A DNA stretch of 32,000 nt from Microcystis aeruginosa NIES-2549. GTDB taxonomy: Bacteria > Cyanobacteriota > Cyanobacteriia > Cyanobacteriales > Microcystaceae. The position numbers and the translations under genes are program-made. Within the stretch, counting starts at the first letter, position 1; each line of letters starts with the position of its first letter. Shown one piece after another: positions 7,124 to 27,118 of this stretch. Under the pieces are notes generated by a model. That model was given only the letters and a program-made list of their open reading frames with translations. It ran no database searches and was not told the origin of the DNA. The DNA lies in contig NZ_CP011304.1 of NCBI RefSeq assembly GCF_000981785.2, positions 3,210,001 to 3,242,000 on the forward strand. The letters are read 5' to 3'.

Positions 7124-7241
7124 TCGGGAGTCGGGAGTCAGCCTTAAATCAGTTATCAGTTATCAGTTATCAGTCATAATTCCCCCACTCCCCCACTCCC
7201 CCATCTCCCCACTTCATAATTCATAATTCATAATTTATAAT
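7124..7241. repeat. composite block of four different short tandem repeats downstream of infB
   Basis: (TCGGGAG)x2 at 7124-7137; (ATCAGTT)x3 plus ATCAGTC at 7148-7175; the octamer TCCCCCAC x2 plus two variants at 7181-7212; (TCATAAT)x3 plus TTATAAT at 7214-7241. Confidence 0.9.
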
Positions 7242-8608: not shown

Positions 8609-9340
8609 TCAGAAATTTTCTTGGGGATTTATGCCCAATTCCCGCAGTTTAGCCGCTAATTTTGCGGCTTTCTGCCTTTCCTGTTGGACTTGATTTTCTG
8701 CTTCTACAGCCCGATTTTCTGCCTGTTGTGCCGCTTCTGCGGGAGTGGGTACTAATTCGCCTTCGGGGGTAAAATAGCGCAATTTATTGGCAGCTAAACC
8801 CAAATATAAGCCTAATTGTTGACTCCAGAGCCATCCCTGCGGATTGGGAGCAATCGGTTGATATTGACCGCTAATTAGGGTAAATCCTTGAAATTCTAAG
8901 CTTTCTGGGTCAAACCAAAAATAATCGGGAGTGCGAAATATATCTTGATAAATTTGTTTTTTCTCCTCTCGGTCAACTTTGGCGGTACTATCGGAGAGAA
9001 TTTCGATAATTAAATTGGGATATTTACCCTCTTCTTGCCAAACTACCCAACTTCTGCGGTTGGGATTGGGATTTGTCCCCAAAACGACGAAAAAATCGGG
9101 ACCACGGCAGAATTCTGGCTTTTTCTGGTTGGGACTGTAATAAATGGTTAAATTGCCGGCGGCAAAATAATCTTCTCGCTCGCGCCACCACCATTCTAAA
9201 CACTGAATTAATAAAATAATTTGTTGTAGATGTAGGTTACTTTCCAAAGGGGGTTCATCACTCCAAAATTCCCCTTCTGGGAAGATTATCTCAGGGTTTA
9301 CATGAGACTCGACTAGGGGTAAGCTTTGAGCGATAGTCAT
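8609..9340 (-). CDS. Uma2-family (DUF820) PD-(D/E)xK endonuclease with C-terminal coiled-coil tail
   Basis: The motifs PDFFVV...SWVVWQEEGKYPNLIIEILSDST...K..IY...PDYFWFDP are typical of cyanobacterial Uma2 proteins. The tail reads AENRAVEAENQ...LAAKLRELGINP. Confidence 0.8.
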   Translation of the reverse strand: MTIAQSLPLVESHVNPEIIFPEGEFWSDEPPLESNLHLQQIILLIQCLEWWWREREDYFAAGNLTIYYSPNQKKPEFCRGPDFFVVLGTNPNPNRRSWVVWQEEGKYPNLIIEILSDSTAKVDREEKKQIYQDIFRTPDYFWFDPESLEFQGFTLISGQYQPIAPNPQGWLWSQQLGLYLGLAANKLRYFTPEGELVPTPAEAAQQAENRAVEAENQVQQERQKAAKLAAKLRELGINPQENF

Positions 9341-9520: not shown

Positions 9521-10789
9521 CTACCTTTTCTCTAAAATTAGTAAATATTCGGATTTCATGCCATCAGGATTTTTATTCTTGCGAGATTTGAATAACTGTC
9601 TGGTTTTAATTCTATCCTCAAAGACGGTATCAAAAACAAAGCCATTTTCCTGAAAATATTCCTTTAATATTCGCCAAGTTTCTACTTCCACTCCATCCAC
9701 TTTTGGATTACCGACAAAAATGCAAGCTTTGCCAGCTTGTTTTAATTTTCTGGTGGCATTTTCTAAAGCGTTGATAGTGTGACAAAAATAGGAATCGAGT
9801 ATTTTATGTAAATTCTCTTTCTCTAAACTTGATCTCACTCGATTTAAGGTTTCAGTTTCGATTAATCTGGTAGCCTGTCGGTAGGGAATTTCTAGCTTAG
9901 AGATTTTTTGCACTTCTTTTTCTGTATATCCTAACCAATATAAATCTAGTTTTGCTGTTCTGATATATTCTTGTGCTTGCAGATAGGGGGGTGAACTAAT
10001 TAAACAATCTAACTCTAGATTTTGATCGATCTCAAAAGTGGCACTATCTACTCCTCCATAAAAAAGCACTTGATTACAATTATGCCAAGTTACGGTAATA
10101 TATTGATTGACGCTGGTTAAAGTTTCAAAACTCATATCTTTAATCGTTCGTTTTAATTCCTCTTGCCAATCTCTTTGTAATAGTTCTTGTATATCTGATT
10201 TTTTGTATTTCGATTGAAATAATTTTGGTTTCGTATGTTCTGCATAGGAAAACTGTTTACTAACTTTCACTAAAACCGCTTGAATGATCTGGGAATACAA
10301 ATCAGGTTCTAGACTTTTTTGACCTGCCCAAAGTTTCTGTAAAACTACTAAAATCTCCTCTGGATACCAATAGTTTAAATTTGACCACTGAGGGATAAAT
10401 TTATCCTTGCTGGCAAAAACTTCTAAGATTTTTTTATCTAACTCTGAGTAACTCAATGGTTCTTGGTGTTCTGTGATCTTAATCGGTATAATATGGTTTA
10501 AAAGATAATTCAGGTCAGTTAAAACCGCATTTCTTTGACAAAGTTTAGCCTCTAAACCCACCGTACCCGAACCCGCAAAAGGATCGATAATCCAATCATC
10601 CTTTTTACTGTAATTATCAAGGCAAAATCTCACCACTTGGGGAATAAATTTAGCAGGATAATAATAGATGCCATGGGTTAGATAACTGGTGCTGGTGATT
10701 TCTGGTACTAAATCTCGAAAAGAAACTAATCGCGGGGTTCCCCGATTAAATTCTTCTAAATTATTAGAATCGAAAAGTTCTAGCTGCAT
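9521..10789 (-). CDS. DNA methyltransferase, amino-MTase with motif order I..TRD..IV (alpha-like); the SPPY motif suggests N4-cytosine
   Basis: 422 aa with YYYPAKFIPQ, motif [14 protein letters not shown] near aa 70 and motif IV SSPPYLQ near aa 265. Very AT-rich (one 60-nt line hand-counted at about 30 % G+C). No endonuclease ORF is adjacent except the Uma2 gene downstream. Confidence 0.8.
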   Translation of the reverse strand: MQLELFDSNNLEEFNRGTPRLVSFRDLVPEITSTSYLTHGIYYYPAKFIPQVVRFCLDNYSKKDDWIIDPFAGSGTVGLEAKLCQRNAVLTDLNYLLNHIIPIKITEHQEPLSYSELDKKILEVFASKDKFIPQWSNLNYWYPEEILVVLQKLWAGQKSLEPDLYSQIIQAVLVKVSKQFSYAEHTKPKLFQSKYKKSDIQELLQRDWQEELKRTIKDMSFETLTSVNQYITVTWHNCNQVLFYGGVDSATFEIDQNLELDCLISSPPYLQAQEYIRTAKLDLYWLGYTEKEVQKISKLEIPYRQATRLIETETLNRVRSSLEKENLHKILDSYFCHTINALENATRKLKQAGKACIFVGNPKVDGVEVETWRILKEYFQENGFVFDTVFEDRIKTRQLFKSRKNKNPDGMKSEYLLILEKR

Positions 10790-12327: not shown

Positions 12328-13488
12328 ATGGAAAAAGAACTGGTATCGGACAAGCGCGGTTATCTGCTTCGCACGGTGGCAGAAGCTAAAGAAATTGTCC
12401 TTAATTGGTTGCGGGAAATAAATTTAGTTAATGCGATTAAATTAGGTTTACCAGAAGTGGATGACAGATATCATATTTGGCGAGTTCCTTTATGTAATGA
12501 ACAGAAAAAAACCGTTGGGGAAGTGGTGATCGATGCCTACACCAACGAAATTTTAGCCGATAGGACAACCCGGACTGAAATTATTATCGCTCGTCTGTTA
12601 AAACAGGATGAATCTAAATTAGAAAACTGCAAGAAACCCAAAAAAGAATATAAGCTTTCCTCTCTGAGAAATACCATCGGATTTGGTGATTGTAGCGAAC
12701 TTTTGGAGGAAATGCCCGCAGAAAGTGTTGATTTAATCTTTACCTCACCACCCTATTTTAATGCTCGTCCGGAATATTCGGAATTTGAAGAATACGAAAG
12801 CTATCTATTGAAGCTGCGACAGGTGATCAGAAAATGTCATCGAGTTTTGAGTGAAGGACGTTTTTTTGTCATTAATATTTCTCCCGTGCTGTTGCGTCGC
12901 GCTTCGCGTAATCAAGCTTCTAAACGTATTGCTGTTCCCTTTGATTTGCATCGAATTTTTATTGAAGAAGGTTACGACTTTATTGATGATATTATTTGGC
13001 TAAAACCAGAGGGAGCAGGGTGGGCAACTGGTAGAGGGCGCAGATTTGCCGCCGATCGAAACCCTCTCCAATACAAAACCGTGCCAGTGACTGAATACGT
13101 TTTAGTCTATCGTAAACACACGGATTTACTCATCGATTGGCATATTCGCAATCATCCCGATCAAGAAGTAGTAAAAGCCTCAAAAATTGCCGATGGTTAT
13201 GAACACACTAATGTTTGGAAGATTAACCCAGTCACCAACTCAAAACATCCCGCCGCTTTTCCCGTAGAATTGGCAGAAAAAGTGATTAATTATTACTCTT
13301 TTAAAGGTGATGTGGTTTTAGATCCCTTTGCTGGTTCAGGAACCGTGGGACTAGCGGCCGCTTCTTTAGATAGACGTTTTGTTTTATTCGAGAGTAATTT
13401 TAATTATATTGAAATGATACGAAAGCTAATTACTGAAGGCAATCAGACTGATTTAGACTCAATTATTTGGCTTAATTGTCCGTTATAA
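12328..13488 (+). CDS. DNA methyltransferase, beta-class order (IV..TRD..I), SPPY motif, with ~110-aa N-terminal extension
   Basis: 386 aa with motif [13 protein letters not shown] near aa 135 and motif [14 protein letters not shown] near aa 333. The N-terminal extension ([29 protein letters not shown]) is of unknown fold. Confidence 0.8.
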
Positions 13489-13852: not shown

Positions 13853-16024
13853 TTATTTATGGAATTGGTGAAGTAGATCGCGAAATTCCGGAAAACTAAT
13901 CTGATTATCGCGACTTGTATCGGCCTGTTGTAACATAGCTTCGATTTCCTTGTCTGTCACCCCCGGTTCGATCGCCTGAAGACAAGCTTTCAACTCCTCA
14001 AGGCTAATTTGTCCAGAGCCATCACTATCGAATAGCTGGAATCTTTCCAATAAAATCCTTTCCTGTTGATCACGATCGCTGTCACTACTAAAAGATAGAC
14101 GATCGAAGACCTGAAAAGCGCGGGCGATATTTTGCCATAATTGATGGGCCAAAGGACGATGGAGAATCGTTTCTTCCTCCTGACCAGTAACTCCGTACTG
14201 GCGACGCAAAGACTCGACAGTTTCCGTTTCTGCAGCCGGCAATTCCGTCAATAAATGCTCGATCGCCTCCCTGGAACTCTTACCGGTTAACACTTCCAGC
14301 AATTCCGACCCCACTTTGCGATCGGGGTCTTTTTTCCAAGTCACCAAGAGACTTTCTAACAAAGCATCGCGATAACTCTGCAAACGTAACCAATCCTCGC
14401 GACTATACTGCTTTTCCGGATCGAGAAGTTCGGCCGATTCCACACCCAACTCTGTGAGAATTGCCTGATGTTCTGCCTCGGTAATCGTCAACTCTAGGCG
14501 CATTTGTTGCAGGATTTCGAGGCTGTGGCCGAAGTCAGTATATCCCTCCTCCAAAGCCTCTTTTAACACGGCTTTATAGGCTTTTAAACGCTTCTGGTGG
14601 GTGAAATCCGGCAGTATCTTGGCTAATACATACACCTCATCCGCCTGCAAAGCTTCCAGCGATCGCCCATCGAGATATTTAGCTGTATCGAGACCCAGTT
14701 TACCCAACTGTTTACGCAATCTTCCCGCTAGTCCTTCCCGTTGGTAAAGACCCGGATTCCTTGTCCAGGTGCGATATAACCATAAACTACTCAAAACCGC
14801 CAGTAAAATACTAGCGAAATAATGCCAAAATTTTGGCAAAAGATTAATAAAAGGACGACCACCGAAAATAAAGAAGAAATTGAAAATCAGAAAAGTTCCG
14901 ACAGTAAAGACGCGGTGACGGATAATTTCGGTCGGTAAGGGCGACTTTTTGCGAATTCTATAGACTTTATAGGCATTTTCCACTTTTTTACCGAGAAAGT
15001 AACCCAAAAAAGTGCAGATTGCCAAAGTTAAGGGAACAGCTACCAACTTCGGAATCGCAATTGCCTGACCGGCAAGATAAAAACCCGGTTTAAAGAGGGA
15101 TTCTAGTTGATTTTCGTCGTGCGCCCAAGCTCCAGAGAAATAATAGTCCCAATTGCCAGCATAAAGATAATAATAGATAAAATAGCCAAAAACTAAACCA
15201 AAATAACCGTAATAAAGCCATTGGCGATCGCTGTTAGTTATCCCGTCCCAATAGGATCTTTCCGCATCGATATCGATACAGGGACTCTGACAGGCAACAC
15301 AGGCACTTTGTTCGCTACCATCTTCATGGACAATGCGACACATGGATTGAGTAATGCCACCGCGACTGTCTTCGTGAGCGGTGCTATTTAGTAAACCCCT
15401 TGGTTCACCGTAAATCCTCTGAACCGGACTCATGGGACAAAAATAATTACACCAAGATTTGCCCCCATACCAATAACCGACAAAGATCGCCGCTAGAATA
15501 GTAAAGGTTAAAAAGCTACCCAAGAATAAGCGATCGGAATTATAAAAGAGAATCCGTCCGCATAAACCCAAAAATAACAGACTGAATTGTAGATAGAGAT
15601 AATTCTGGGCTAACCAAGAGTTTTTCGGCACTTTATAGATTTCAGAGCGGACTTTTCCCGATTTATCGGTCTGTTTTTTCTGACGCTGTTTACCCAAAGC
15701 GCGTGGTATTTGAGAAAGAAAGGATAAAGGACAGATACGCCGCCAGAGTTCGTGACCGAATACTAATAAGATAAAAATGCCACTAGGAACCACTATTCCC
15801 CAAAAAATCGGCGCACCTAACTGATAGGAGGATTGGGGTAGGCAAACTCCCTGGACTTTAATGCACACATCGGGATCAACTCTCAGGGGACTAGAAAGAT
15901 TGTTAGGATCGGTTAATTTTGCTGAAATAGGGTCAAAAAACAGAGAAAATATCAGAATTAACCAAGCGATGGTCACAACCCATCGCAGATAGTGCATTGA
16001 GCGTTCGGGAATTTGTGCAAACAT
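13853..16024 (-). CDS. NapH/MauN-like polyferredoxin-type membrane protein fused to a C-terminal EF-hand pair
   Basis: 723 aa with multiple TM segments. Contains WRRICPLSF and KSWCNYFCPMSP (WCxxxCP-type), CVACQSPCIDID, helical repeats, and then a canonical EF-hand loop DSDGSGQISLEELKACL plus a second one DTSRDNQISFPEFRDLL. Confidence 0.7.
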   Translation of the reverse strand: MFAQIPERSMHYLRWVVTIAWLILIFSLFFDPISAKLTDPNNLSSPLRVDPDVCIKVQGVCLPQSSYQLGAPIFWGIVVPSGIFILLVFGHELWRRICPLSFLSQIPRALGKQRQKKQTDKSGKVRSEIYKVPKNSWLAQNYLYLQFSLLFLGLCGRILFYNSDRLFLGSFLTFTILAAIFVGYWYGGKSWCNYFCPMSPVQRIYGEPRGLLNSTAHEDSRGGITQSMCRIVHEDGSEQSACVACQSPCIDIDAERSYWDGITNSDRQWLYYGYFGLVFGYFIYYYLYAGNWDYYFSGAWAHDENQLESLFKPGFYLAGQAIAIPKLVAVPLTLAICTFLGYFLGKKVENAYKVYRIRKKSPLPTEIIRHRVFTVGTFLIFNFFFIFGGRPFINLLPKFWHYFASILLAVLSSLWLYRTWTRNPGLYQREGLAGRLRKQLGKLGLDTAKYLDGRSLEALQADEVYVLAKILPDFTHQKRLKAYKAVLKEALEEGYTDFGHSLEILQQMRLELTITEAEHQAILTELGVESAELLDPEKQYSREDWLRLQSYRDALLESLLVTWKKDPDRKVGSELLEVLTGKSSREAIEHLLTELPAAETETVESLRRQYGVTGQEEETILHRPLAHQLWQNIARAFQVFDRLSFSSDSDRDQQERILLERFQLFDSDGSGQISLEELKACLQAIEPGVTDKEIEAMLQQADTSRDNQISFPEFRDLLHQFHK

Positions 16025-16070
16025 AGACCTAAGTAGTGATGTAGAAGCGACTTTTAAGGGAGATAGGTGT

Positions 16071-16350
16071 CTAATTGTTGAATTCTAACGCTTTTCCAGG
16101 AATGGCGGCGAAAAACTCTCCTTTTTGATAGACTATATTACCATTAACAATAGTTACTGCTGGCCATCCCGTCAAACTCCAACCCTCAAAAGGACTCCAA
16201 TCAGATTGAGATAAATTGATGGGTCTGGTGGAAGCAAGGAAACCCGACACAAACCTCTTATTTGTTTACTTAGTACAAATGCTTGCTTATTCCTAGTGCG
16301 CTGAGGAAATTTGTCTAGAGGATTCTGAGTCAGCATTTCCAACCAAAACG
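16071..16350 (-). pseudogene. C-terminal remnant of a dihydroorotase/cyclic amidohydrolase, frameshifted and 5-prime truncated
   Basis: The reverse complement reads ...NLSQSDWSPFEGWSLTGWPAVTIVNGNIVYQKGEFFAAIPGKALEFNN*. This fits the DHOase C-terminal pattern S...sPF.G..L.G.p..TivnG.ivy. The upstream part (LEMLTQNPLDKF...LLPPDPSI) is in another frame, which is the track ORF 16172..16369. The remnant ends against CRISPR-type repeat A. Confidence 0.5.
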
Positions 16351-16356
16351 CAATAG

Positions 16357-16468
16357 CTTTCTTATTCAACTAATTTCTCTGGCGAGTAGAGAGAGTTTCG
16401 TTAACCAATGCGTCGGGAAGCATACCCTACAGTTTCCATTCAACTAATTTCTAAGCGCGAGTAGAGAG
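16357..16468. CRISPR. mini-array 1: degenerate repeat A (16357-16393), 38-nt spacer, consensus repeat B (16432-16468)
   Basis: B is GTTTCCATTCAACTAATTTCTAAGCGCGAGTAGAGAG (37 nt). A is CTTTCTTATTCAACTAATTTCTCTGGCGAGTAGAGAG. The spacer is unique. The reverse complement ends ...TTGAATGGAAAC, as in many cyanobacterial type I-D/III repeats, which suggests minus-strand transcription (inference). Confidence 0.7.
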
Positions 16469-16522
16469 TCAATTGCAAGAGTGTCTACCCTCACCTGTAA
16501 ACTTAAATGCGTCCTAACTTAT

Positions 16523-17758
16523 TTAAGAAGGATTAATATTTTGTGGCGTGCCACAATGATAACAATAGGGCATAAATTTATAAGTTAAATTATGACAATG
16601 AGGACATTCGACATATTGAGCATAACCACAATGAGGACAATGTGAATGATCATTATGAATTTTTTTACCGCAATTTAAACAACGAGATTTTTCGACTCTT
16701 TTACTAGCTTGAGTTTTAGGATTAAAAACAATTTGTTGGAAAAATTTGATGATACCAAAACCAATGGCAGGGATTAAAAATATATATAAATAATTAATTA
16801 AAAATACTAAACCACCGAAAATAACGGTAATAATATCAAAAATAAATTCAAAAATAACTCCTACCTGCAAAAATTCAAATATTTTAATTAGTAATGGAAT
16901 AAAAAAGATAACTAATAAATGCCAACTCATTAAAGAAAGCAATCCATATCCCTTTTCTATGGATAATTTATGGACAAATAAACTAATAAAGATTAGAGGT
17001 AATAAGAAGATAAGTTGGAAAATAATTTGAATAGATGGATACCAAAATGAAGCTTTTTCATAACCTTGTTTAACTTCACTAAATTTAACCTCTGAATTTA
17101 ATAAAGAAAGAAAACTGACGGTTTCAGAAGTGGCTAATAATTGTTGTTTTAATTCCTTAATTTCTGTCTTGAGATTATTAATATTAAGGTTATTTTTATC
17201 TAATTCTTGCTTTGCTTTTTGGGCTTCAACTTCATTGATGGATAAATTACTAGGTTGACCTACAATTTGTTCTAATAAACTAGAGTCATATTGACTGCGA
17301 ATAGTACGATTTTTTTCTTGAAGGGAAGTTACTTGTTTTTGCTTATCTTCTATGGTAGTGAAAATTAGCTTATTATTCGGTTGATTTATATTATTTTTAA
17401 GACTGGCAAAATTAACACAAATAGGAGATACTTTTCCTAAGTGTCTTTCTGGAGATTGGTCATAATTTTCGGGGATATAGGGAACTCTATTTAAATTTAA
17501 GATTTCACTTACTATTAAAAAATCTCGATCGCTATTTTTATTTTGTTGATAACTTTGCCATTGATCATAACAAGGATAGGCTTGAGAAGGACTTAAATAC
17601 CATCTACTAATACTATCTAATCCTAAAAAAACGTTAATGAGAATAAACAAATCAATAACAATAATAACCGTTAAACTGATTTTATTAACTGGTTCATTAT
17701 TAATGTTTCTTGATTTTGTAAAAAATAGATCAATAAAATTTCTTATTTTTCTGAACAT
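16523..17758 (-). CDS. AT-rich membrane protein with central coiled coil and C-terminal double zinc ribbon (unknown function), nested between CRISPR-type repeats
   Basis: 411 aa with an N-terminal TM (LTVIIVIDLFILINVFLGL), an N/K/Q-rich coiled segment, three or four TM segments at about aa 240-340, and then CLNCGKKIHNDHSHCPHCG...CPHCHNLTYKFMPYCYHCG. One 60-nt line hand-counted at about 20 % G+C. It is the only long ORF in the region. Confidence 0.6.
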   Translation of the reverse strand: MFRKIRNFIDLFFTKSRNINNEPVNKISLTVIIVIDLFILINVFLGLDSISRWYLSPSQAYPCYDQWQSYQQNKNSDRDFLIVSEILNLNRVPYIPENYDQSPERHLGKVSPICVNFASLKNNINQPNNKLIFTTIEDKQKQVTSLQEKNRTIRSQYDSSLLEQIVGQPSNLSINEVEAQKAKQELDKNNLNINNLKTEIKELKQQLLATSETVSFLSLLNSEVKFSEVKQGYEKASFWYPSIQIIFQLIFLLPLIFISLFVHKLSIEKGYGLLSLMSWHLLVIFFIPLLIKIFEFLQVGVIFEFIFDIITVIFGGLVFLINYLYIFLIPAIGFGIIKFFQQIVFNPKTQASKRVEKSRCLNCGKKIHNDHSHCPHCGYAQYVECPHCHNLTYKFMPYCYHCGTPQNINPS

Positions 17759-17775
17759 CTTGAGTTTTTAATATG

Positions 17776-17884
17776 GGTTACATCCAACTAATTTCTCCAG
17801 CGAGTGGAGAGATTCCAGCCTTCCAGTAGAGAGCAACATCTCTATTTTGTTTCCATTCAATTAGTTTCTCCAGCGAATGAAGAG
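17776..17884. CRISPR. mini-array 2: degenerate repeat C (17776-17811), 37-nt spacer, degenerate repeat D (17849-17884)
   Basis: C is GGTTACATCCAACTAATTTCTCCAGCGAGTGGAGAG. D is GTTTCCATTCAATTAGTTTCTCCAGCGAATGAAGAG. By hand alignment each is roughly 75-80 % identical to repeat B. The spacer itself contains a partial repeat tail (CCAGTAGAGAG). Repeat C ends 17 nt from the start codon of the 411-aa ORF. Confidence 0.6.
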
Positions 17885-17999
17885 GTCAATAAAGCGATTG
17901 AAGAAAAAGGAGCTAGACTAATTTATTTACCCCCTTAATCTCCCGATTTTGCCCCGATTGAAAATTTTTAATCAAAAATCAAGTCAATCTTGAGAATAG
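17885..17999 (+). pseudogene. IS630-family transposase C-terminal remnant (about 38 codons, two in-frame stops)
   Basis: Reads VNKAIEEKGARLIYLPP*SPDFAPIENF*SKIKSILR. This matches the conserved IS630 DDE segment ..LIFLPPYSPDLNPIE..WSK.K. TAA codons replace the conserved Tyr (17936) and Trp (17969). No IS ends are visible. Confidence 0.6.
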
Positions 18000-18161
18000 G
18001 ACTTTCCTTGATTTGTAAATCTCTTACATCTGCAACCCCCTCCCTTTTAGCAATTTCTTCAATAATATCTTTAACAAAATCGGGTTCTAGGCTGACAATT
18101 TCGGCTTCGCTGTTCCCAAAAATACCCAAGGTTATATTCTTCCTTTTTTTACAAAAAATAA

Positions 18162-18198
18162 GTTTCCATTCAACTAATTTCTAAGCGCGAGTAGAGAG
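18162..18198. CRISPR. solo repeat E, 37/37 identical to repeat B
   Basis: GTTTCCATTCAACTAATTTCTAAGCGCGAGTAGAGAG read directly. No further repeat follows within the next 360 nt. Confidence 0.65.
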
Positions 18199-18560
18199 AA
18201 TGAATATTTACCCTTTGGGGGACATTTGGCTAGAGTCTTTATCCTGCCTACCTTTAAACCTCTTTGTCACCCCTTGAGTCTATTAACACATCTCCCTGAC
18301 TAAATTCGCCATCGGGGAAGAGTATACGGGCTTGACAAATTAGTAGTGATTTGGTAGACATAGGAAAATTGCCCGAAAAATATTGTTGACGTTGCCAATA
18401 TAACTATAGCAAAGATCGGGGTGGTTAGGACAATCAATCGCTGAAACCCTTGACCGATAAGAGTTTGAAAATTGAAAGCGTCCTAAATAACCCATTTTTT
18501 GCTATAAACTAGAAAATTAAAGAGCGCATTAGCTTAATCCTTCTCAAAAGTTAAAATTCT

Positions 18561-19163
18561 ATGGCTGAAAGCTTGAACCATAAATCCGAAAAACCTTCTC
18601 CCCCTCCCGTCCCCCAAGAAAACCCTTGGCTAGAAGCAGTTAAAACCATTGTCACGGCTGGAATTTTGGCTTTTGGCATCCGCACTTTTGTGGCCGAGGC
18701 CCGTTATATTCCCTCTTCTTCCATGGAACCTACTCTCCAGATTAACGATCGCCTAATTATCGAGAAAGTTAGCTATCATTTTCATAAGCCAGAACGGGGT
18801 GATATAGTGGTTTTTAGTCCGACAGCCGCTCTGAAAGCTCAAAATTTTCAGGATGCTTTTATTAAACGGGTGATTGGACTGCCGGGGGATAAGGTGGAAG
18901 TCAAAAACGGTCTAGTTTACGTCAACGGTAAAGTTTTAGCGGAAAAGTATATCGCCGAAGAACCTAATTATGCTTACGGACCGGTGACAGTTCCCCCCGA
19001 TCAATATCTGGTTTTGGGCGATAATCGCAATAATAGTTATGATTCCCACGCTTGGGGCTTCGTTCCCCGGGAAAACTTAATCGGTCGCGCCGTGGTGCGT
19101 TTTTGGCCCTTCAATCGTCTGGGAGGACTTGACAACCCCGACGCTGCCACAAATCAGAATTAA
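18561..19163 (+). CDS. lepB: signal peptidase I
   Basis: 200 aa with an N-terminal TM, the catalytic Ser box [10 protein letters not shown], the Lys box KRVIGLPGD, and [16 protein letters not shown]. Confidence 0.92.
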
Positions 19164-19449: not shown

Positions 19450-20322
19450 CTATAAATCTAAATTTTCAATATTGCTTTGGGCCATAGACAAATGATCAAG
19501 ATCCAGTGGATCACTGTCAACATAATCTTTTGCGGTCATATCTTCTAAGCTTACTACTAAACCATCAGACTGAAAACGTCCAGAGTTAGGTAATAAATTT
19601 AACCACTTATCTAGCCATTTGTCCCATCCAATGTCATTATAGTCCTCTTGTTCTTCTTCACGAATAAAATAAAACATAAGTTCAGGATTTTCATCATTCC
19701 ACGAAGGTCTTGCACTAACTCTAATTTCCCGCAAAGCTCGTAAGGCTTCCCCTTCATCACTTTGTTTAGTATGCTTATCTTGCATCCGTTTTTGAAGTTT
19801 ACTGACAAATTGAACAAAATCATCTGGAAAAGCAAAACGGATTCTTTTTCTTGCTATCGCTTGTGCTAAGAGTCTTTTTTCTTGATCAGTTACACAACCC
19901 TGTTGACGATTCCATTGTAAGATCAATGCTTTTTCGACTGTCATTACCCTATCGAGATCAGCTACTAAGTTTAGTTTGGCAACTCCTTCAATGTAAACGT
20001 ATTGAGGTCGTCTGCCTTTTTTTATCTCACTAATTTTTTCAGCTTCAATTTCTACCAGAGGAACAACTTCTAGAAAAGGACGTTCACAACAATAACGGAC
20101 AATATCGCAAGTTTGTGTAACAACAACTAGACCTTTTACTTCCGATTTTACAAGATCATTTTCTTCAGCATCTTGCTTTGTAGAATCAGGTGTAAGAGGA
20201 AATTGAGGATTAAATCGATGAACAAACCGCTGTTCTCCTAAAACAAAATCCCCTTGACACCATGTTTGTAACTCATTGTTAATGAGATCAATCTGTTTGC
20301 TTTCCACTGCGATTTTGACCAC
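19450..20322 (-). CDS. hypothetical protein, third gene of the AT-rich three-gene cassette (candidate effector/toxin)
   Basis: 290 aa. The only plausible starts are GTG 20322 or GTG 20307, and both lie inside the 3-prime end of the upstream ORF. No family recognised. Motifs: GDFVLGE...GLVVVTQTCDIV...LEVVPLVEI, KRIRFAFPDDF, and an acidic, W-rich C-terminus. Confidence 0.6.
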   Translation of the reverse strand: MVKIAVESKQIDLINNELQTWCQGDFVLGEQRFVHRFNPQFPLTPDSTKQDAEENDLVKSEVKGLVVVTQTCDIVRYCCERPFLEVVPLVEIEAEKISEIKKGRRPQYVYIEGVAKLNLVADLDRVMTVEKALILQWNRQQGCVTDQEKRLLAQAIARKRIRFAFPDDFVQFVSKLQKRMQDKHTKQSDEGEALRALREIRVSARPSWNDENPELMFYFIREEEQEDYNDIGWDKWLDKWLNLLPNSGRFQSDGLVVSLEDMTAKDYVDSDPLDLDHLSMAQSNIENLDL

Positions 20323-20962
20323 TACTCAATGTTTTAGCAGGTCTAGAACGTCCAACATCATGATGAATAGAATCTTGTAAAGCATCAATTAATATCTCCG
20401 GTGGTAAAGGCCTACGAAGCTCACTCTCCTCCTCAGACAAAGGTCTTAATTGCGGTCTTTTGGGTGGATTACCACGCCCAAGATTCTCTCTTACTTTATC
20501 ATATTCTCCTGATATTAATTGGTCTAAAGGCAGTTCCCCATCAGCATTAGGCTTCAATAATAACTTACGGTTAAGACTTGCACTTCCTCGATCAATATAT
20601 CTAATCACTCCCAGTAATCTATTTAATTTCTCCTCATTGTCACTAGCTAGAGGCTGTCCACTTGCCCAAAAATGAATGCTTCGACGTGAAACATTAAATA
20701 GTTTGGCAACTTGCTCCCAGGTCAGTCCACTGGTTTTTCTGAGTTCATTAATCGCTTTTTGACTATCTTGAAAAAGATGAGGATTGTGCTTCGGAATAAC
20801 TATTCCGCTATTAGTTCTTTCTGAAATCGCTAGTAACTTTTGAGCGTCAAGACTACCAGAGCTAATGGTACTGGATTCCGCAATACCAGCAAACATTCTA
20901 AATGGTTTTTGAGGATTGATTGATCTAAAAGTATTTGAACGTTCAAGCACTGAGTTACTCAT
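20288..20962 (-). CDS. Xre-type helix-turn-helix protein, antitoxin-like (second gene of the cassette)
   Basis: 224 aa with the HTH LTWEQVAKLFNVSRRSIHFWASG, followed by EEKLNRLLGVIRYI...LLLKPNADGELPLDQLISGEYDKVRENLGRG. The ATG overlaps the upstream stop (ATGA at 20962-20959), with GGAGG 6 nt upstream. Confidence 0.7.
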   Translation of the reverse strand: MSNSVLERSNTFRSINPQKPFRMFAGIAESSTISSGSLDAQKLLAISERTNSGIVIPKHNPHLFQDSQKAINELRKTSGLTWEQVAKLFNVSRRSIHFWASGQPLASDNEEKLNRLLGVIRYIDRGSASLNRKLLLKPNADGELPLDQLISGEYDKVRENLGRGNPPKRPQLRPLSEEESELRRPLPPEILIDALQDSIHHDVGRSRPAKTLSSGQNRSGKQTD

Positions 20963-21774
20963 TGTTCACCTCCAAAGCGTCTGAGAAATTCTTCGGTTAC
21001 TGACCATCGGAAAAAAGTATAAATTCTTTCAGAAAATCGTTTTGTATCCTCTAAAATTTTTTCAACGTCAAATTCTTGATTCTCTGAAATAGACATATCT
21101 AAATCAAGAAACCAACTCGGTTGATCAATCGGTTCAAAGACATTTGGATCAAAAGTAGCGTTACCTGGAATCAATCCCCATCTTGCTAAAAGTGTCTCTT
21201 TGGTATCAGGTAACTGAAACAGAGATTCATTATAACTTTGAATAATATGTTCTTGAAATGTTGACGCGGTGATATTTATCAGTTCTGATCTGACTAAATT
21301 AGAAATATTCCCTACATCAATACCCTCAATACGATCAACATATCTAATACCGATTCGCTCAACAAGGTTGGGTTGAATATGTTCATTAACCGCAGTTAAA
21401 ACTTCTCTCATTCGCTCTAAAAAGTCCTGACGACTGACATACTTTGATGTGTCTAAGGTGACAAAATTAGATGCTAATGAGACTCGCCAATGATTATTGA
21501 CATCTGTAAATCGCCAGATAACCTCAGCTTGAGATCTGACGGCATCTTTTTCTTGATTATCAAAAGTTAATTGATAAGTTCGTTCCTGCCGTAACTTAGG
21601 ATACTTTGTTCTAATAGCTTCCTGAAATGGAGTCACAAATTTCCTATCCTCAACGGCCAGAATTTGTGGGAACCGTACTTGTCCAAGCACACACACTAGA
21701 GGTGCATTAGTTAAGTGAACCTCTGGAGGAGTTGGATCGATCAGTGGATTGTTAATACCGACCACTTTGGACAT
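20959..21774 (-). CDS. TIGR04255-like uncharacterised protein (first gene of the cassette)
   Basis: 271 aa. The N-terminal LTNAPLVCVLGQVRFPQI and the central RIGIRYVDRI match my memory of the TIGR04255 family pattern (aPL.ev..el.F ... RiGLRYiN.i). AGGAG lies upstream of the ATG. Confidence 0.65.
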   Translation of the reverse strand: MSKVVGINNPLIDPTPPEVHLTNAPLVCVLGQVRFPQILAVEDRKFVTPFQEAIRTKYPKLRQERTYQLTFDNQEKDAVRSQAEVIWRFTDVNNHWRVSLASNFVTLDTSKYVSRQDFLERMREVLTAVNEHIQPNLVERIGIRYVDRIEGIDVGNISNLVRSELINITASTFQEHIIQSYNESLFQLPDTKETLLARWGLIPGNATFDPNVFEPIDQPSWFLDLDMSISENQEFDVEKILEDTKRFSERIYTFFRWSVTEEFLRRFGGEQ

Positions 21775-23577: not shown

Positions 23578-25371
23578 TTAACGTTTGGCTAACTTTTTCA
23601 CTGGTAATTTACGCAGACGGATCGATTTCGGGGTAATTTCTACCAACTCATCTGGTCCAATGTATTCCAGGGCGCGTTCGAGACTCATATCCACGGGGGA
23701 CTGTAACTGAACCAATTCATCCCCAGTGGCGGAACGATGGTTAGTTAACTGTTTAGTTTTGCAGATATTGATCTCCACGTCCTGGGGCCGGTTGCTTTCG
23801 CCGATAATCATGTTTTTATACACTTTTGTCCCCGGAGTAATAAAGAATACCCCCCGGTCCTCGGCGTTTTTGAGAGCGTAGAAAGTGGCCACTCCTTCCT
23901 CAAAGGCAGTAATCACGCCATTGTAACGGGTGGCTAATTCCCCGGAGAAAGGACGATATTCGAGAAAACTATGGTTCATAATCCCCTCACCGCGACTCAG
24001 ACGGATAAATTCGCCCCGGAAACCGATTAAACCCCGGGCCGGAATCACGAATTCCAATTGAGTACGGCCATTGCTGCCCGTCTGCATATCCTGCATTTCC
24101 CCTTTCCGTTGGCCGAGACGTTCGATACTGGAACCCACCGCTTCTTCGGGTACATCTAAAACGAGGTATTCGTAGGGTTCGCAGGGTTGACCGTTAATTT
24201 CCCGATAGATAACTTGCGGCTGCGACACTTGGAATTCGTAGCCTTCCCGACGCATGGTTTCGATGAGAATGCCTAAATGCAGTTCTCCCCGTCCCGAAAC
24301 TAGGAATTTCTCGGCAGAATCACTTTCTTCCACCCGTAGGGCGACGTTAGTTTCTAATTCTCGCATCAGACGATCGCGAATTTGCCGCGAGGTGACAAAA
24401 GTGCCTTCCTGACCGGCAAAGGGAGAATCGTTAACCGAGAAGGTCATTTGTAGGGTCGGTTCATCGACTTTAATTAGGGGTAAAGCCTGCGGGTCATCGG
24501 CTAAAGTTACGGTTTCCCCGATGTTAGCGTCGGCAAAACCAGCCACAGCAACGATATTACCGGCGCTGGCTTCGTTTAGTTCCACCCGTTTGAGGCCTTC
24601 AAAACCAAGAAGTTTTGTTATTTTACCCTTGACAATTGCGCCCGTATCCTTTACTAAAGCGGCCTGTTGACCGGCTTTAATTACGCCGTTATGGATGCGG
24701 CCGATAACGATGCGTCCTAAGTATTCCGAGTAATCGAGGGTGGTTACTTGCAGCTGTAGGGGTTTGTTAACGTCCCCGGCCGGTGGTGGAACGTGGTGTA
24801 AAATCGCCTCAAACAGGGGCTGCATATCTTTGTCTTCATCTTCGAGGCTTTCTTTGGCGAATCCTTGCATCCCGGAAGCGAACAGAGTAGTAAAATCACA
24901 TTGGTCGTCATCGGCGCCCAGTTCCACAAACAGATCGAAAACTTTGTCCACGGCTAGGTTAGGATCGACGTTAGGGCGATCGATTTTATTAACCACGACA
25001 ATCGGTCTTAATCCCTTTTCTAGGGCTTTTTTCAGCACAAAACGGGTTTGGGGCATCGGCCCCTCGTTGGCATCGACAATCAGGATACAACCGTCCACCA
25101 TACCTAAAACCCGTTCCACTTCGCCACCAAAGTCGGCGTGACCGGGAGTATCGACGATGTTAATCAGGGTGTTTTGGTAACGAACGGCGGTGTTTTTGGC
25201 CAGAATGGTGATACCGCGTTCTCTTTCGAGGTCATTGGAATCCATGACGCAGGTGGGTACATCTTCCCCTTCTCGAAAGATTCCCGACTGTTTGAGGAGT
25301 GCATCGACGAGGGTGGTTTTCCCGTGGTCAACGTGAGCAATGATAGCAACGTTACGGATAGGCAGAGACAT
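23578..25371 (-). CDS. typA: translational GTPase TypA/BipA
   Basis: 597 aa starting [19 protein letters not shown], with [14 protein letters not shown] and NKIDR, and TypA-specific C-terminal domains. Confidence 0.95.
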
Positions 25372-26351: not shown

Positions 26352-27011
26352 ATGAAAGCATTTGTAGCAGGAGCCACGGGGGAAACGGGACGGCGAATCG
26401 TTGCCCAATTAGTCGAACGTCAGATTCCCGTGCGCGCTTTGGTGAGAAACCGCGAGAAAGCGGCGGAAATTTTGCCAGCAGGGGTGGAAATCGTCGTCGG
26501 AGATGTCCAACAGGCCGATAAGTTAGAGGCACTCATCGCTGATTGTAGCGTTTTGCTATGCGCCACGGGAGCCAGACCGAGTTTTAATCCCACGGAACCT
26601 TTGTTAGTGGACTACTTGGGAACTAAAAATCTCATCGATGCCGCCAAAAAGAAAGGAATCGAGCATTTTGTTCTCGTTACTTCCCTCTGTGTATCGAACT
26701 TTTTCCACCCCCTCAATCTCTTTTGGTTAATTTTATTCTGGAAAAAACAAGCGGAAGCCTATTTAATCAATAGTGGACTAACCTACACGATCGTGCGACC
26801 CGGCGGCCTTAAAAACGATGATAATCTTAATGCCATTAAAATGTCATCCGCCGATACCCTGTCTGAGGGCAATATTCCCCGCACGAAAGTGGCCTCGGTT
26901 TGCGTAGAATCCCTATTTTATCCCGCCGCTAACAATAAAATTCTCGAAATTGTTGCCCCCTCAGACGCTCCCAATCTCGATTGGTCACAATTGTTTCAAA
27001 GTGTCACCTAA
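26352..27011 (+). CDS. atypical SDR / NAD(P)H-binding Rossmann-fold protein (NmrA/Tic62-like)
   Basis: 219 aa starting MKAFVAGATGETGRRIV (GxxGxxG), with ...YTIVRPGGL typical of the PF13460-type family. Confidence 0.85.
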   Translation: MKAFVAGATGETGRRIVAQLVERQIPVRALVRNREKAAEILPAGVEIVVGDVQQADKLEALIADCSVLLCATGARPSFNPTEPLLVDYLGTKNLIDAAKKKGIEHFVLVTSLCVSNFFHPLNLFWLILFWKKQAEAYLINSGLTYTIVRPGGLKNDDNLNAIKMSSADTLSEGNIPRTKVASVCVESLFYPAANNKILEIVAPSDAPNLDWSQLFQSVT

Positions 27012-27012
27012 A

Positions 27013-27061
27013 CAGTAATCAGTGAACAGTAATCAGTAAACAGTGATCAGTGAACTGATAA
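27013..27061. repeat. heptanucleotide tandem repeat CAGT(A/G)A(A/T) x6 plus CTGATAA, starting 2 nt after the stop codon
   Basis: cagtaat cagtgaa cagtaat cagtaaa cagtgat cagtgaa ctgataa, read directly. Same family as 2284-2318 and 2374-2415. Confidence 0.9.
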
Positions 27062-27118
27062 CTCAAATCTGGAAACTAAAAACTCATATCTGTTAACGAA
27101 TGCAGGAGGCAGGAGTCC

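Follow-up and report, generated by a model that had tools for sequence, protein, structure and literature searches.

A probable remnant of a DR3-family CRISPR array in Microcystis aeruginosa NIES-2549 encloses an intact gene of Geminocystis-like origin

A small group of CRISPR-type repeats lies in the genome of Microcystis aeruginosa NIES-2549 at a site inside a dihydroorotase-like pseudogene, between lepB and a gene for an EF-hand membrane protein. In the 32,000-nt stretch of DNA analysed here (the window), five copies of 36-37 nt are present, all of them on the minus strand in the orientation CTCTCT...GGAAAC, and two of them enclose an intact open reading frame (ORF). The features of the locus are as follows, L045 being a locus from a divergent Microcystis lineage.

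16071..16253, minus strand: C-terminal remnant of the cyclic-amidohydrolase (dihydroorotase-like) pseudogene, matching the C-termini of dihydropyrimidinase/dihydroorotase chains (E = 1e-5 to 1e-4)
16358..16393, minus strand: repeat A, 36 nt, degenerate, terminal (trailer end), CTCTCTACTCGCCAGAGAAATTAGTTGAATAAGAAA; the same degenerate repeat ends the L045 array
16394..16431, minus strand: A-B spacer, 38 nt, a normal spacer length
16432..16468, minus strand: repeat B, 37-nt variant CTCTCTACTCGCGCTTAGAAATTAGTTGAATGGAAAC, the same as repeat E
16469..17775, minus strand: inter-repeat insert B-C ('giant spacer'), 1307 nt, made up of a 17-nt 5′ leader, the intact ORF and a 51-nt 3′ tail
16469..16519, minus strand: 3′ tail of the insert, 51 nt, absent after the ORF in every sampled donor-like contig
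16523-17758, minus strand: ORF of 411 aa, ATG at 17758, intact, GC 26.7%
17776..17811, minus strand: repeat C, 36 nt, CTCTCCACTCGCTGGAGAAATTAGTTGGATGTAACC, with a mutated 3′ handle
17812..17848, minus strand: C-D pseudo-spacer, 37 nt, with a partial repeat copy inside
17849..17884, minus strand: repeat D, 36 nt, CTCTTCATTCGCTGGAGAAACTAATTGAATGGAAAC
17885..18161, no strand assigned: D-E interval, 277 nt, the second over-long inter-repeat segment
17885 to ~18020, plus strand: internal fragment of an IS630-family transposase pseudogene, directly abutting repeat D and followed by ~140 nt of other sequence up to repeat E
18162..18198, minus strand: repeat E, 37 nt, identical to repeat B
18257..18361, minus strand: N-terminal remnant of the same amidohydrolase pseudogene
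18405-18506: MITE-like element next to the array

Read along the minus strand, the order is repeat D, the 37-nt pseudo-spacer, repeat C, a gap of 17 nt (17759-17775) and the ATG of the 411-aa ORF, just as an earlier note on this DNA had described it, and the copy of the repeat tail that the note had seen within the pseudo-spacer, CCAGTAGAGAG, is found at 17822-17832. Between the stop codon and repeat B there are 54 nt (16469-16522), as the note implied, but its way of dividing them, into 17 nt and a stretch of spacer length, is arbitrary. Two further features were not taken up in the note: the A-B unit, whose spacer has 38 nt, and the D-E interval of 277 nt. Repeats B and E are identical 37-mers, and the 36-nt variants A, C and D deviate from a DR3-like consensus at 4-6 positions; in repeat C the 5′ hairpin is preserved via a compensatory pair. 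The A-B and C-D units, with spacers of 38 and 37 nt, have a canonical period of 73-75 nt, and the B-C and D-E segments measure 1307 and 277 nt. A 16-nt core of the repeat, with up to 3 mismatches allowed, occurs five times in the window against a mean of 0.61 in shuffled sequences, none of 100 shuffles reaching five, and within the 32 kb the repeats are confined to the array locus.

To which family do these repeats belong? In Microcystis, the repeat DR3, CTCTCTACTCGCTAGAGAAATTAATTGAATGGAAAC, always occurs with III-B cas sets (Yang et al. 2015, PMC4428289), and the FACHB-524 Cluster 4 system, which carries a DR3-type repeat, has been reconstituted as a Cmr complex (PMC11855584). The window repeats are one to a few bases off DR3 and share with Microcystis DR3 arrays the 3′ handle ATGGAAAC, the spacer length (37-38 nt in the two normal spacers) and, in repeat C, the 5′ hairpin. 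Long, genuine arrays built on the final 21 nt of the repeat occur in Hydrococcus and in several cyanobacterial metagenome-assembled genomes (MAGs), with up to 106 copies per 8-kb locus, and these arrays adjoin cas1, cmr2 and cmr3, or RAMP genes. In Microcystis M015S2 (L011) the array stands beside cmr2 and cmr3, and the array of strain T1-4 (L018), a homologue of that of M015S2, has as its last repeat an exact copy of B and E. Taken together, these matches show that the window repeats, by sequence, are members of the DR3 family of Microcystis, which serves type III-B (Cmr) systems. Microcystis genomes abound in small repeats, and a MITE-like element lies next door at 18405-18506, so that one might take the repeats for a dispersed element of that kind rather than for CRISPR. 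Their agreement with the published DR3 and with genuine arrays of such copy number, the canonical period of two units and the restriction of the repeats to a single locus in the window leave practically no probability for this reading.

The window array differs from Microcystis DR3 arrays in several respects: it has just five heterogeneous repeats, over-long segments of 277 and 1307 nt and no cas genes within 32 kb, no cas domain having been detected by Pfam in any sizeable ORF of the window, and its site, inside a pseudogene, is unoccupied in several other strains. It also differs in having no recognisable leader, and a comparison for leader homology gave none. An Rfam search of the whole window gave no family at the gathering threshold, and in the E-value mode for 16200-18400 it gave chance-level matches only and no CRISPR-DR model. 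The short spacers had no phage matches by BLAST against 50,697 phage records, and the repeat core had no match among IMG/VR viral contigs. The A-B spacer matches typA at 24243-24255 exactly over 13 nt, which is too short for a type III target.

The product of the ORF is laid out as an N-terminal transmembrane helix, an extracytoplasmic coiled-coil region, a helical membrane bundle and a C-terminal double zinc ribbon. It belongs to a family with more than 1000 homologues across cyanobacteria, in which it is a single-copy chromosomal gene, and it retains every residue that is invariant in an alignment of 25 family sequences. The earlier note had named relatives that have the ORF without repeats as evidence against its proposal, and such relatives are what we found: at all 16 non-Microcystis loci examined the family gene has no repeats beside it and its neighbours are housekeeping genes. 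On the ORF, Pfam gave zinc-ribbon models only, all below threshold, and PADLOC returned nothing either for it or for a neighbouring three-gene island. No CARF, SAVED or nuclease domain was found in the ORF, and comparison of its AlphaFold model (pLDDT 74) with the PDB by Foldseek, together with a profile search of PDB sequences, yielded only generic coiled-coil/zinc-ribbon noise. Type III systems often have membrane-bound ancillary effectors, and a membrane protein encoded between type III-family repeats could be thought to be one of them, functionally part of the array. The absence from the ORF of CARF, SAVED and nuclease domains and of any PADLOC match, the lack of cas genes nearby, and the family's other loci, 16 without CRISPR association and among housekeeping genes, make such a role extremely improbable. 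A homologue search seeded with a Pleurocapsa protein of the family had no Microcystis sequence among its best 120 matches. In a plasmid search with the ORF the sole homologue, at 49%, was on a plasmid of Synechocystis PCC 6714.

One of the two possibilities offered in the earlier note was a CreTA-like module, that is, an addiction module of the CreTA/CrePA kind in which D-spacer-C would yield a crRNA-like CreA, and a Cas effector directed by it would keep the neighbouring ORF, a toxin, repressed. The layout is similar, with a degenerate repeat, a 37-nt pseudo-spacer and a second degenerate repeat followed by an ORF 17 nt downstream, and protein toxins under CreA control exist, CrePA being an example (bioRxiv 10.1101/2024.01.05.574328). 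The search for complementarity to the pseudo-spacer that the note had recommended gave nothing: exact matches in the window reach no more than 9 nt, less than the 10.3 nt averaged by shuffles, a gapless comparison over 16000-18700 gave 19/37 at best, and there is no target near the ORF. Known modules use type I effectors and are located in cas loci (PMC8501985, PMC9458426), whereas the window repeats are of type III, from a family that serves the RNA-targeting type III-B rather than a Cascade-type DNA-binding effector, and there is neither a cas operon nor any cas gene in the window. Furthermore, the window gene encodes a conserved membrane protein that is widespread without repeats, it would share a transcription unit with the repeats, which precede it, rather than have a promoter matched by the guide, and a family that is single-copy and chromosomal in more than 1000 cyanobacterial sequences does not appear toxin-like. 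The two units that precede the ORF in L045 have different spacers, and there is therefore no conserved guide. The repeats are thus not a regulatory CreA-like guide for the ORF, and we regard a module of the CreTA/CrePA kind as very improbable here. A degenerate mini-array beside an ORF need not mean a CreTA module.

Where, then, did the ORF come from? Its GC content is 26.7%, against ~41-43% in the Microcystis loci compared, and its DNA is 96.5% identical to one group of Geminocystis-like contigs (L028-30, over 16519-17761) and 95% identical to another (L031-33, over 16520-17775). Its neighbours in both groups are the NAD kinase and Raf1 genes, and no repeats are present there. Composition and identity show the ORF to be a foreign gene from a Geminocystis-like source. 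The homology to the donor-like contigs sets in precisely where repeat C borders the insert and stops 3-4 nt past the stop codon. At the 5′ junction, the window has the end of the repeat, ...GTAAAC, followed directly by CATATTAAAAACT, where the donor has ATAATTAT followed by CATATTAAAAACT; this alignment shows a junction exact at the repeat edge. The other possibility raised in the earlier note, that a mobile gene had come to rest in an array, is thereby supported and made more precise: the gene is foreign and fills the slot between two repeats. No transposase or terminal inverted repeats (TIRs) were found in the insert (TIR score 10, shuffle mean 8.9), and nothing marks the ORF itself as mobile. 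The insert starts 4-5 nt after the TATAAT of the donor.

The other end of the insert is more complicated. About 40 nt of the 51-nt tail resemble an L031 sequence just 3′ of another gene (38/45 match), and this similarity to a donor-lineage element extends to ~12 nt from repeat B; among the sampled donors none has the tail that would define the 3′ junction. A donor with the 51-nt tail straight after the ORF was sought among the closest homologues (P0008-P0014), and none was found. A scan of metagenome contigs with the ORF gave only relatives at 54-60%, with no donor and no further Microcystis loci; viral contigs gave nothing for the ORF, nor did a phage BLAST give anything for the whole insert. 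Two origins were considered for the tail or the insert and set aside. For the tail as a MITE, no inverted repeat was found either in it or at the similar L031 site. An RNA origin of the insert via RT-Cas1 would suit the start just after the donor TATAAT but is at most remotely likely, the 3′ end having neither a terminator nor a U-tract and no RT being reported for the Microcystis DR3 locus in PMC11855584.

In six other Microcystis loci the EF-hand gene and lepB are only 293-495 nt apart, without repeats, which shows that the whole structure is absent from several other strains and, by this comparison, accessory. NIES-3806 and NIES-3787 are among the carrier strains. L045 shares the inter-repeat insert, at ~98.4% identity to the window, and this exceeds the identity of the repeats (83%), of the flanks (83-90%) and of a shared spacer (31/36). 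Alignment of the two loci thus shows the insert to be conserved more highly than its surroundings in a second lineage. The dN/dS of the ORF is 0.24 against the L045 copy, a value built on 9 synonymous and 9 nonsynonymous differences, and 0.31 against L028, from which it is separated by a dS of 0.07.

Is the ORF of any use to its present host? It could be a silent passenger, brought into dead DNA by illegitimate recombination with a junction that meets the repeat by coincidence, and neither expressed nor useful. The surroundings, consisting of a pseudogene, an IS630 relic, a MITE-like element and heterogeneous repeats, would suit such an event, and no sigma-70-like promoter was found on the minus strand from the ATG to 18560. 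The transfer is recent, in that the GC content has not shifted toward that of the host and the dS to L028 is 0.07, and the intact frame may therefore need no selection to account for it. On the other side stand the dN/dS of about 0.24 between two copies that both reside in Microcystis, the greater conservation of the insert than of repeats, shared spacer and flanks, and the orientation of the ORF, which is the sole one that permits expression from transcription of the array. By our own estimate, only a few in a hundred random insertions into a unit of ~73 nt would have a junction no more than 1 nt away from a repeat edge. On balance we consider a silent passenger unlikely, and we infer from the residues retained, the substitution pattern, the conservation of the insert and the orientation of the ORF that the gene is probably functional in Microcystis.

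If so, how is it expressed? The TATAAT box of the donor lies just outside the transferred piece. Since the donor promoter region was not transferred, co-transcription of the ORF with the repeats is a reasonable supposition, and since the ORF is co-oriented with the repeats, its transcription is probably upstream read-through, starting at the former promoter of the pseudogene or belonging to transcription of the array; the repeats would consequently form its 5′ UTR. Minus-strand transcription would most likely enter the array from the promoter region of the pseudogene, which is divergent and shared with lepB.

We think it probable that the locus is an orphan, eroding DR3 array, one spacer slot of which holds a Geminocystis-like fragment with a promoterless gene, probably expressed by read-through. 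An outline of the proposed course of events is as follows: a remnant of a Microcystis DR3-family (type III-B) array, orphaned in the dihydroorotase-like pseudogene, would be decaying, and a 1.3-kb fragment of a Geminocystis-like chromosome would have come to occupy one of its spacer slots, bringing exactly one intact gene and leaving the gene's own promoter behind. The gene, laterally acquired in this way, would then be read through from upstream transcription, and a DR3-type Cas6, should the strain possess it, could cleave the repeats in its 5′ UTR. As for the route of insertion, either the adaptation machinery may have integrated an over-long prespacer or a break may have been repaired at a repeat-spacer junction.

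The first of these routes can be extended into a bolder proposal, which we put forward tentatively and think improbable as a whole. Cas1-Cas2 would have integrated the 1307-nt fragment as an over-long prespacer, the array thus serving as a gene-capture site; the gene would be expressed in the pre-crRNA, possibly released by Cas6 at C and B, and would have passed from one Microcystis lineage to another as a cassette bounded by repeats; and the 277-nt segment with the IS630 fragment would be a second product of loose length control. With respect to boundaries, the 5′ one is exact at repeat C, and the flanking repeats B and C would since have diverged or been exchanged. Cas1-family integrases, as in casposons, can insert kilobase-sized DNA with free 3′-OH ends, and an oversized spacer is therefore mechanistically conceivable; unlike a casposon, the window insert lacks TIRs and a casposase and, apart from the CRISPR repeats themselves, shows no target-site duplication. 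Integron cassettes offer an analogy and no more: they are promoterless ORFs between short recombination-prone repeats, depend on an upstream promoter and are exchanged between lineages as units, and the window ORF is likewise promoterless, repeat-bounded and part of a unit shared by lineages. The window, in contrast, has no integrase, attC or attI and presents a single instance, with repeats that are CRISPR repeats.

Neither orphan arrays nor over-long 'spacers' derived from transposons are new. The long 'spacers' of at least 100 nt tabulated by Kupczok et al. 2015 are mostly transposon-like (PMC4524480); the window insert resembles them in being an inter-repeat segment far over spacer length with preserved repeat boundaries, and differs in being an intact, non-mobile chromosomal gene of another genus, without transposase or TIRs, co-oriented with the array and showing signs of purifying selection. 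By comparison with that set, the presence of such a gene in a spacer slot appears unusual. What adds to its interest is that the captured gene was placed right at a repeat edge, points in the direction needed for read-through, bears those signs of selection and seems to have spread between lineages. If the adaptation machinery carried out the insertion, CRISPR integrases could place kilobase-sized DNA in vivo and arrays could act as gene-acquisition platforms; even on an ordinary reading, the 96.5% DNA identity makes the locus a clean, datable case of recent intergeneric gene flow into Microcystis.

The array and its flanks vary in smaller ways as well. The D-E segment gave IS630 matches in plasmid searches. 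In L045 the C-terminal remnant of the amidohydrolase is present on both sides of the array, that is, duplicated, and in some sister strains one extra repeat-spacer unit stands upstream of repeat E.

An orphan CRISPR array of DR3, a Microcystis repeat type, has one spacer slot taken by a promoterless foreign gene that is co-oriented with the repeats. Besides this locus, the window, part of a Microcystis aeruginosa chromosome, contains rimP-nusA-infB, a carbonic anhydrase gene, two DNA methyltransferase genes, pyrC, lepB, prs, typA and a DEAD-box helicase gene, and a Pfam search found no cas gene within its 32 kb. All five repeats, each 36-37 nt long, are located between an EF-hand membrane-protein gene and the divergently oriented lepB:

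13853-16024, minus strand: EF-hand membrane-protein gene, one border of the repeat region
16071-16253: C-terminal fragment of an amidohydrolase gene
16358-16393, minus strand: repeat A, a typical degenerate terminal repeat
16432-16468, minus strand: repeat B, same sequence as repeat E
17776-17811, minus strand: repeat C, directly 5′ of the insert
17849-17884, minus strand: repeat D, adjoining the D-E interval
18162-18198, minus strand: repeat E, same sequence as repeat B
18257-18361: N-terminal fragment of the amidohydrolase gene, a remnant near lepB
18561-19163, plus strand: lepB, the other border

The 16-nt repeat core, allowing up to 3 mismatches, occurs 5 times in the window against 0.61 expected, a count reached in 0 of 100 shuffles. 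The 411-aa ORF (16523-17758, minus strand) starts 17 nt past repeat C and ends 54 nt short of repeat B. The earlier note had placed it 17 nt downstream of a two-repeat mini-array, and the coordinates of repeats and ORF agree; the partial repeat copy that it had described inside the C-D pseudo-spacer is also present.

The 3′-terminal 21 nt of the repeat (AGAAATTAGTTGAATGGAAAC) are found again in true arrays of cyanobacteria: up to 106 copies per single 8-kb locus in Hydrococcus rivularis, 17 repeats, each CTCTCTACTCGCTAGAGAAATTAGTTGAATGGAAAC, in a Cyanophyceae MAG, and further examples in other cyanobacterial MAGs. Arrays of this type adjoin cas1, cmr2 and cmr3 in one comparison locus (L022) and a RAMP protein gene in another (L015). 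A short array of this family adjoins cmr2 and cmr3 in Microcystis sp. M015S2 (L011), and its homologue in Microcystis sp. T1-4 (L018; 86.5% identity across the upstream region) has a terminal repeat that does not differ from B and E. The repeat has been named DR3 (CTCTCTACTCGCTAGAGAAATTAATTGAATGGAAAC), and DR3 arrays are reported to occur always together with subtype III-B cas sets (PMC4428289); Cluster 4 of FACHB-524, a DR3 system, has been reconstituted as a Cmr-crRNA complex (PMC11855584). A 6-bp hairpin close to the 5′ end of the repeat is a family trait, kept in repeat C by a compensatory change (UCUCCA/UGGAGA). The orientation of the repeats (CTCTCT...ATGGAAAC) implies transcription of the array on the minus strand, the same strand as the ORF. 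At several spacer positions of the cmr-adjacent arrays (L018 1095-1150 and L011 5090-5215) there are near-palindromes (GTAGGGTTAATTCATGAATTAACCCTAC and variants), which resemble copies of a dispersed element of REP or MITE type more than they do ordinary spacers. A lone DR3-family repeat (GTCTCTTTTCATAAGAGAAATTAGTTGAATGGAAAC) with no array around it lies near a priA-like helicase gene in a Microcystaceae MAG (L016 985-1020).

The GC content of the ORF is 26.7%, against 41-43% in the compared Microcystis loci. At the DNA level, the ORF matches L028-30 with 96.5% identity over 1243 nt and L031-33 with 95% over 1256 nt, all donor-like Geminocystis-like contigs, and Geminocystis sp. NIES-3708 with 85%. 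Its neighbours are an NAD kinase gene on one side and a Raf1 gene on the other in L028-33, and a prolyl-tRNA synthetase gene and Raf1 in NIES-3708; these are housekeeping contexts of low GC (31-34%). The first base homologous to L031 and two further contigs (L046 and L047) is 17775, directly past repeat C: ...GGATGTAACC is followed by CATATTAAAAACTCAAGATG in the window, and ...TTTATAATTAT by CATATTAAAAACTAAATATG in the donor, whose TATAAT box lies just beyond the edge of the transferred piece. At the other end, donor homology stops 3-4 nt past the stop codon, and no sampled donor-like contig has, behind its ORF, the 51-nt tail that reaches to repeat B. Within this tail, about 40 nt resemble L031 sequence directly 3′ of another gene's stop codon (38/45 positions), and the motif GTTAGGACGCAT has no further occurrence in the fetched Microcystis loci, so that, judging from these comparisons, donor-derived DNA probably comes as close as about 12 nt to repeat B. 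The suggestion that a mobile gene had landed in the array thus holds in that a foreign gene occupies a spacer slot; its mobility finds no counterpart, as no terminal inverted repeats of the insert were found, and it has no transposase, its single ORF matching zinc-ribbon models only.

Outside the insert, the array is eroding. The 277-nt D-E interval includes an IS630-family transposase pseudogene, an internal fragment flush with repeat D, whose translation (AIEEKGARLIYLPP*SPDFAPIENF*SKIKSILR) matches DDE_3 (E = 1e-10); no source was recognised for the remaining ~140 nt. Three features of the locus agree with what Cas1-Cas2 integration of the insert at a repeat border would produce: one junction lies no more than 1 nt from a repeat edge, a second is probably no more than 12 nt from the next repeat, and this small array has another over-long segment flush with a repeat. 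We regard such an integration as unlikely; break repair plus coincidence could have produced the insertion, and later repeat-repeat recombination could have produced the arrangement. No sigma-70-like site was detected on the minus strand in 17759-18560. Transcription on this strand would enter from upstream, the sole candidate being the former promoter region of the amidohydrolase pseudogene, facing away from lepB, and the transcript would pass E, D and C before the ORF. Provided that the strain has a DR3-type Cas6, cutting 8 nt short of the end of repeat C would yield an mRNA with a 25-nt leader. The lepB-proximal promoter region contains a MITE-like element of 102 nt (18405-18506; 27-nt imperfect terminal inverted repeats, TATAGCAAAGATCGGGGTGGTTAGGAC / GTCCTAAATAACCCATTTTTTGCTATA), which is missing from the Microcystis locus L041; the 51-nt tail begins with sequence similar to the GGTTAGGAC(GC) end of the element. 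The A-B spacer (16394-16431) shares a 13-nt exact match (ATGCGTCGGGAAG) with typA/bipA (24243-24255), a length reached in 0 of 200 shuffles; it is too short for a type III target and may be due to chance.

The array-ORF structure is accessory (some strains have it, others do not), and its conservation exceeds that of the surrounding DNA. A lepB protein identical to the window's is found in many assemblies, and in six distinct loci only 293-495 nt, with no repeat, separate the EF-hand gene from lepB; one is that of strain T1-4, which has an empty site here and a DR3 array elsewhere. Relative to L041, the extra DNA is 16136-18293. Remnants of the cyclic-amidohydrolase gene occur at filled and empty sites alike, the C-terminal fragment matching dihydropyrimidinase and dihydroorotase C-termini (E = 1e-5 to 1e-4). 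In all ORF-carrying Microcystis contigs, both its locus and its junctions are those seen in the window, and L004-L007 have one extra repeat-spacer unit upstream of repeat E. In L045, from a more divergent lineage (EF-hand gene start 89.8% identical), the array is a different one, ordered pseudo-repeat, spacer, repeat, spacer, repeat, ORF, 51 nt and an A-like terminal repeat. Its spacer beside the ORF-proximal repeat resembles the extra spacer of L004 at 31/36 positions, which indicates common ancestry of the arrays. Two copies of the amidohydrolase 3′ end (L045 1-126 and 2155-2261; 89.7% identical) bracket the whole array-plus-ORF block, a pattern that would be expected from single-crossover (Campbell-type) integration of DNA with a homologous gene fragment. 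Between the window and L045, the insert is ~98.4% identical, the adjacent repeat 83% and the flanks 83-90%, which suggests that the insert either was exchanged between lineages later than its surroundings or is much more constrained. The dN/dS ratio is 0.24 for these two ORF copies (9 synonymous and 9 nonsynonymous differences), 0.31 for the window ORF and L028, and 0.30 among donor-like lineages.

The ORF belongs to a strongly conserved cyanobacterial family (1109 matches), with 56-60% identity to members from Nostocales, Cyanobacterium, Pleurocapsa and Leptolyngbyaceae and a mean column identity of 69% in an alignment of 25 diverse members. Exactly this protein is encoded on 19 contigs, among them M. 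aeruginosa assemblies and one contig of 4.29 Mb, and NIES-3806 and NIES-3787 have near-identical copies. The N-terminal transmembrane helix of the protein is followed by an extracytoplasmic region, which has two invariant cysteines and a long coiled coil, then by a helical membrane bundle and, at the C terminus, by a double zinc ribbon with eight invariant cysteines. Pfam gave zinc-ribbon models only, all below threshold, and PADLOC and NCBIfam nothing useful; comparison of an AlphaFold model (pLDDT 74) with the PDB gave no significant neighbour, nor did a profile search of PDB sequences give a match. A 49%-identical member lies on a 103-kb plasmid of Synechocystis sp. PCC 6714 (NZ_CP007544.1, 71958-73190); a search of 72,556 plasmid records gave no other plasmid-borne homologue.

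The earlier note had also proposed a CreTA-like module. In CRISPR-repressed toxin-antitoxin modules (CreTA and CrePA), a degenerate mini-array accompanies a toxin gene, and its pseudo-spacer is a partial match to the promoter of that gene; such modules need type I effectors and sit in cas loci (PMC8501985, PMC9458426, bioRxiv 10.1101/2024.01.05.574328). The ORF locus fails each of these defining traits: target, effector type and cas neighbourhood. The pseudo-spacer complementarity that the note had proposed to look for in the locus amounts to 9 nt at most in the whole window, less than the shuffle mean, and to a best gapless match of 19/37 near the ORF. Unlike in the known modules, the repeats are of a type III-B family, cas genes are missing from the neighbourhood and the product is a conserved chromosomal membrane protein. 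The window and L045 share the ORF but not the spacers upstream of it. Finally, all 16 examined non-Microcystis loci encoding ORF homologues lack a repeat of this family or any CRISPR-like periodic repeat, a situation that the note itself had named as speaking against its proposal. A CreTA-like module is very unlikely here.

Orphan arrays are already known. Long 'spacers' of at least 100 nt have been reported, most of them transposon-like (PMC4524480). Here, the spacer slot is filled by an intact, non-mobile gene of another genus that shows signs of selection and of lateral spread, which makes the locus an unusual variant of these known arrangements and not a system of a new kind.

A three-gene minus-strand island (19450-21774) between lepB and prs encodes a TIGR04255-family protein (271 aa), an HTH-domain protein (224 aa) and a 290-aa protein of no assigned family. 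It is present in the window, L035, L036, L039, L040 and L043 and absent from L001, L037, L038, L041 and L042, which does not follow the presence of the ORF insert; PADLOC gave no match on it, and it may be an accessory or defence-like module not yet characterised. The two N6/N4 DNA methyltransferase genes (9521-10789, within a 32-37% GC stretch, and 12328-13488) flank pyrC; no restriction partner was identified in the window, and a Uma2-family endonuclease gene adjoins (8609-9340). Intergenic tandem repeats with a 7-nt period (CTGATAA / CAGTAAT types) occur at 2266-2429, 7139-7183 and 26995-27110.
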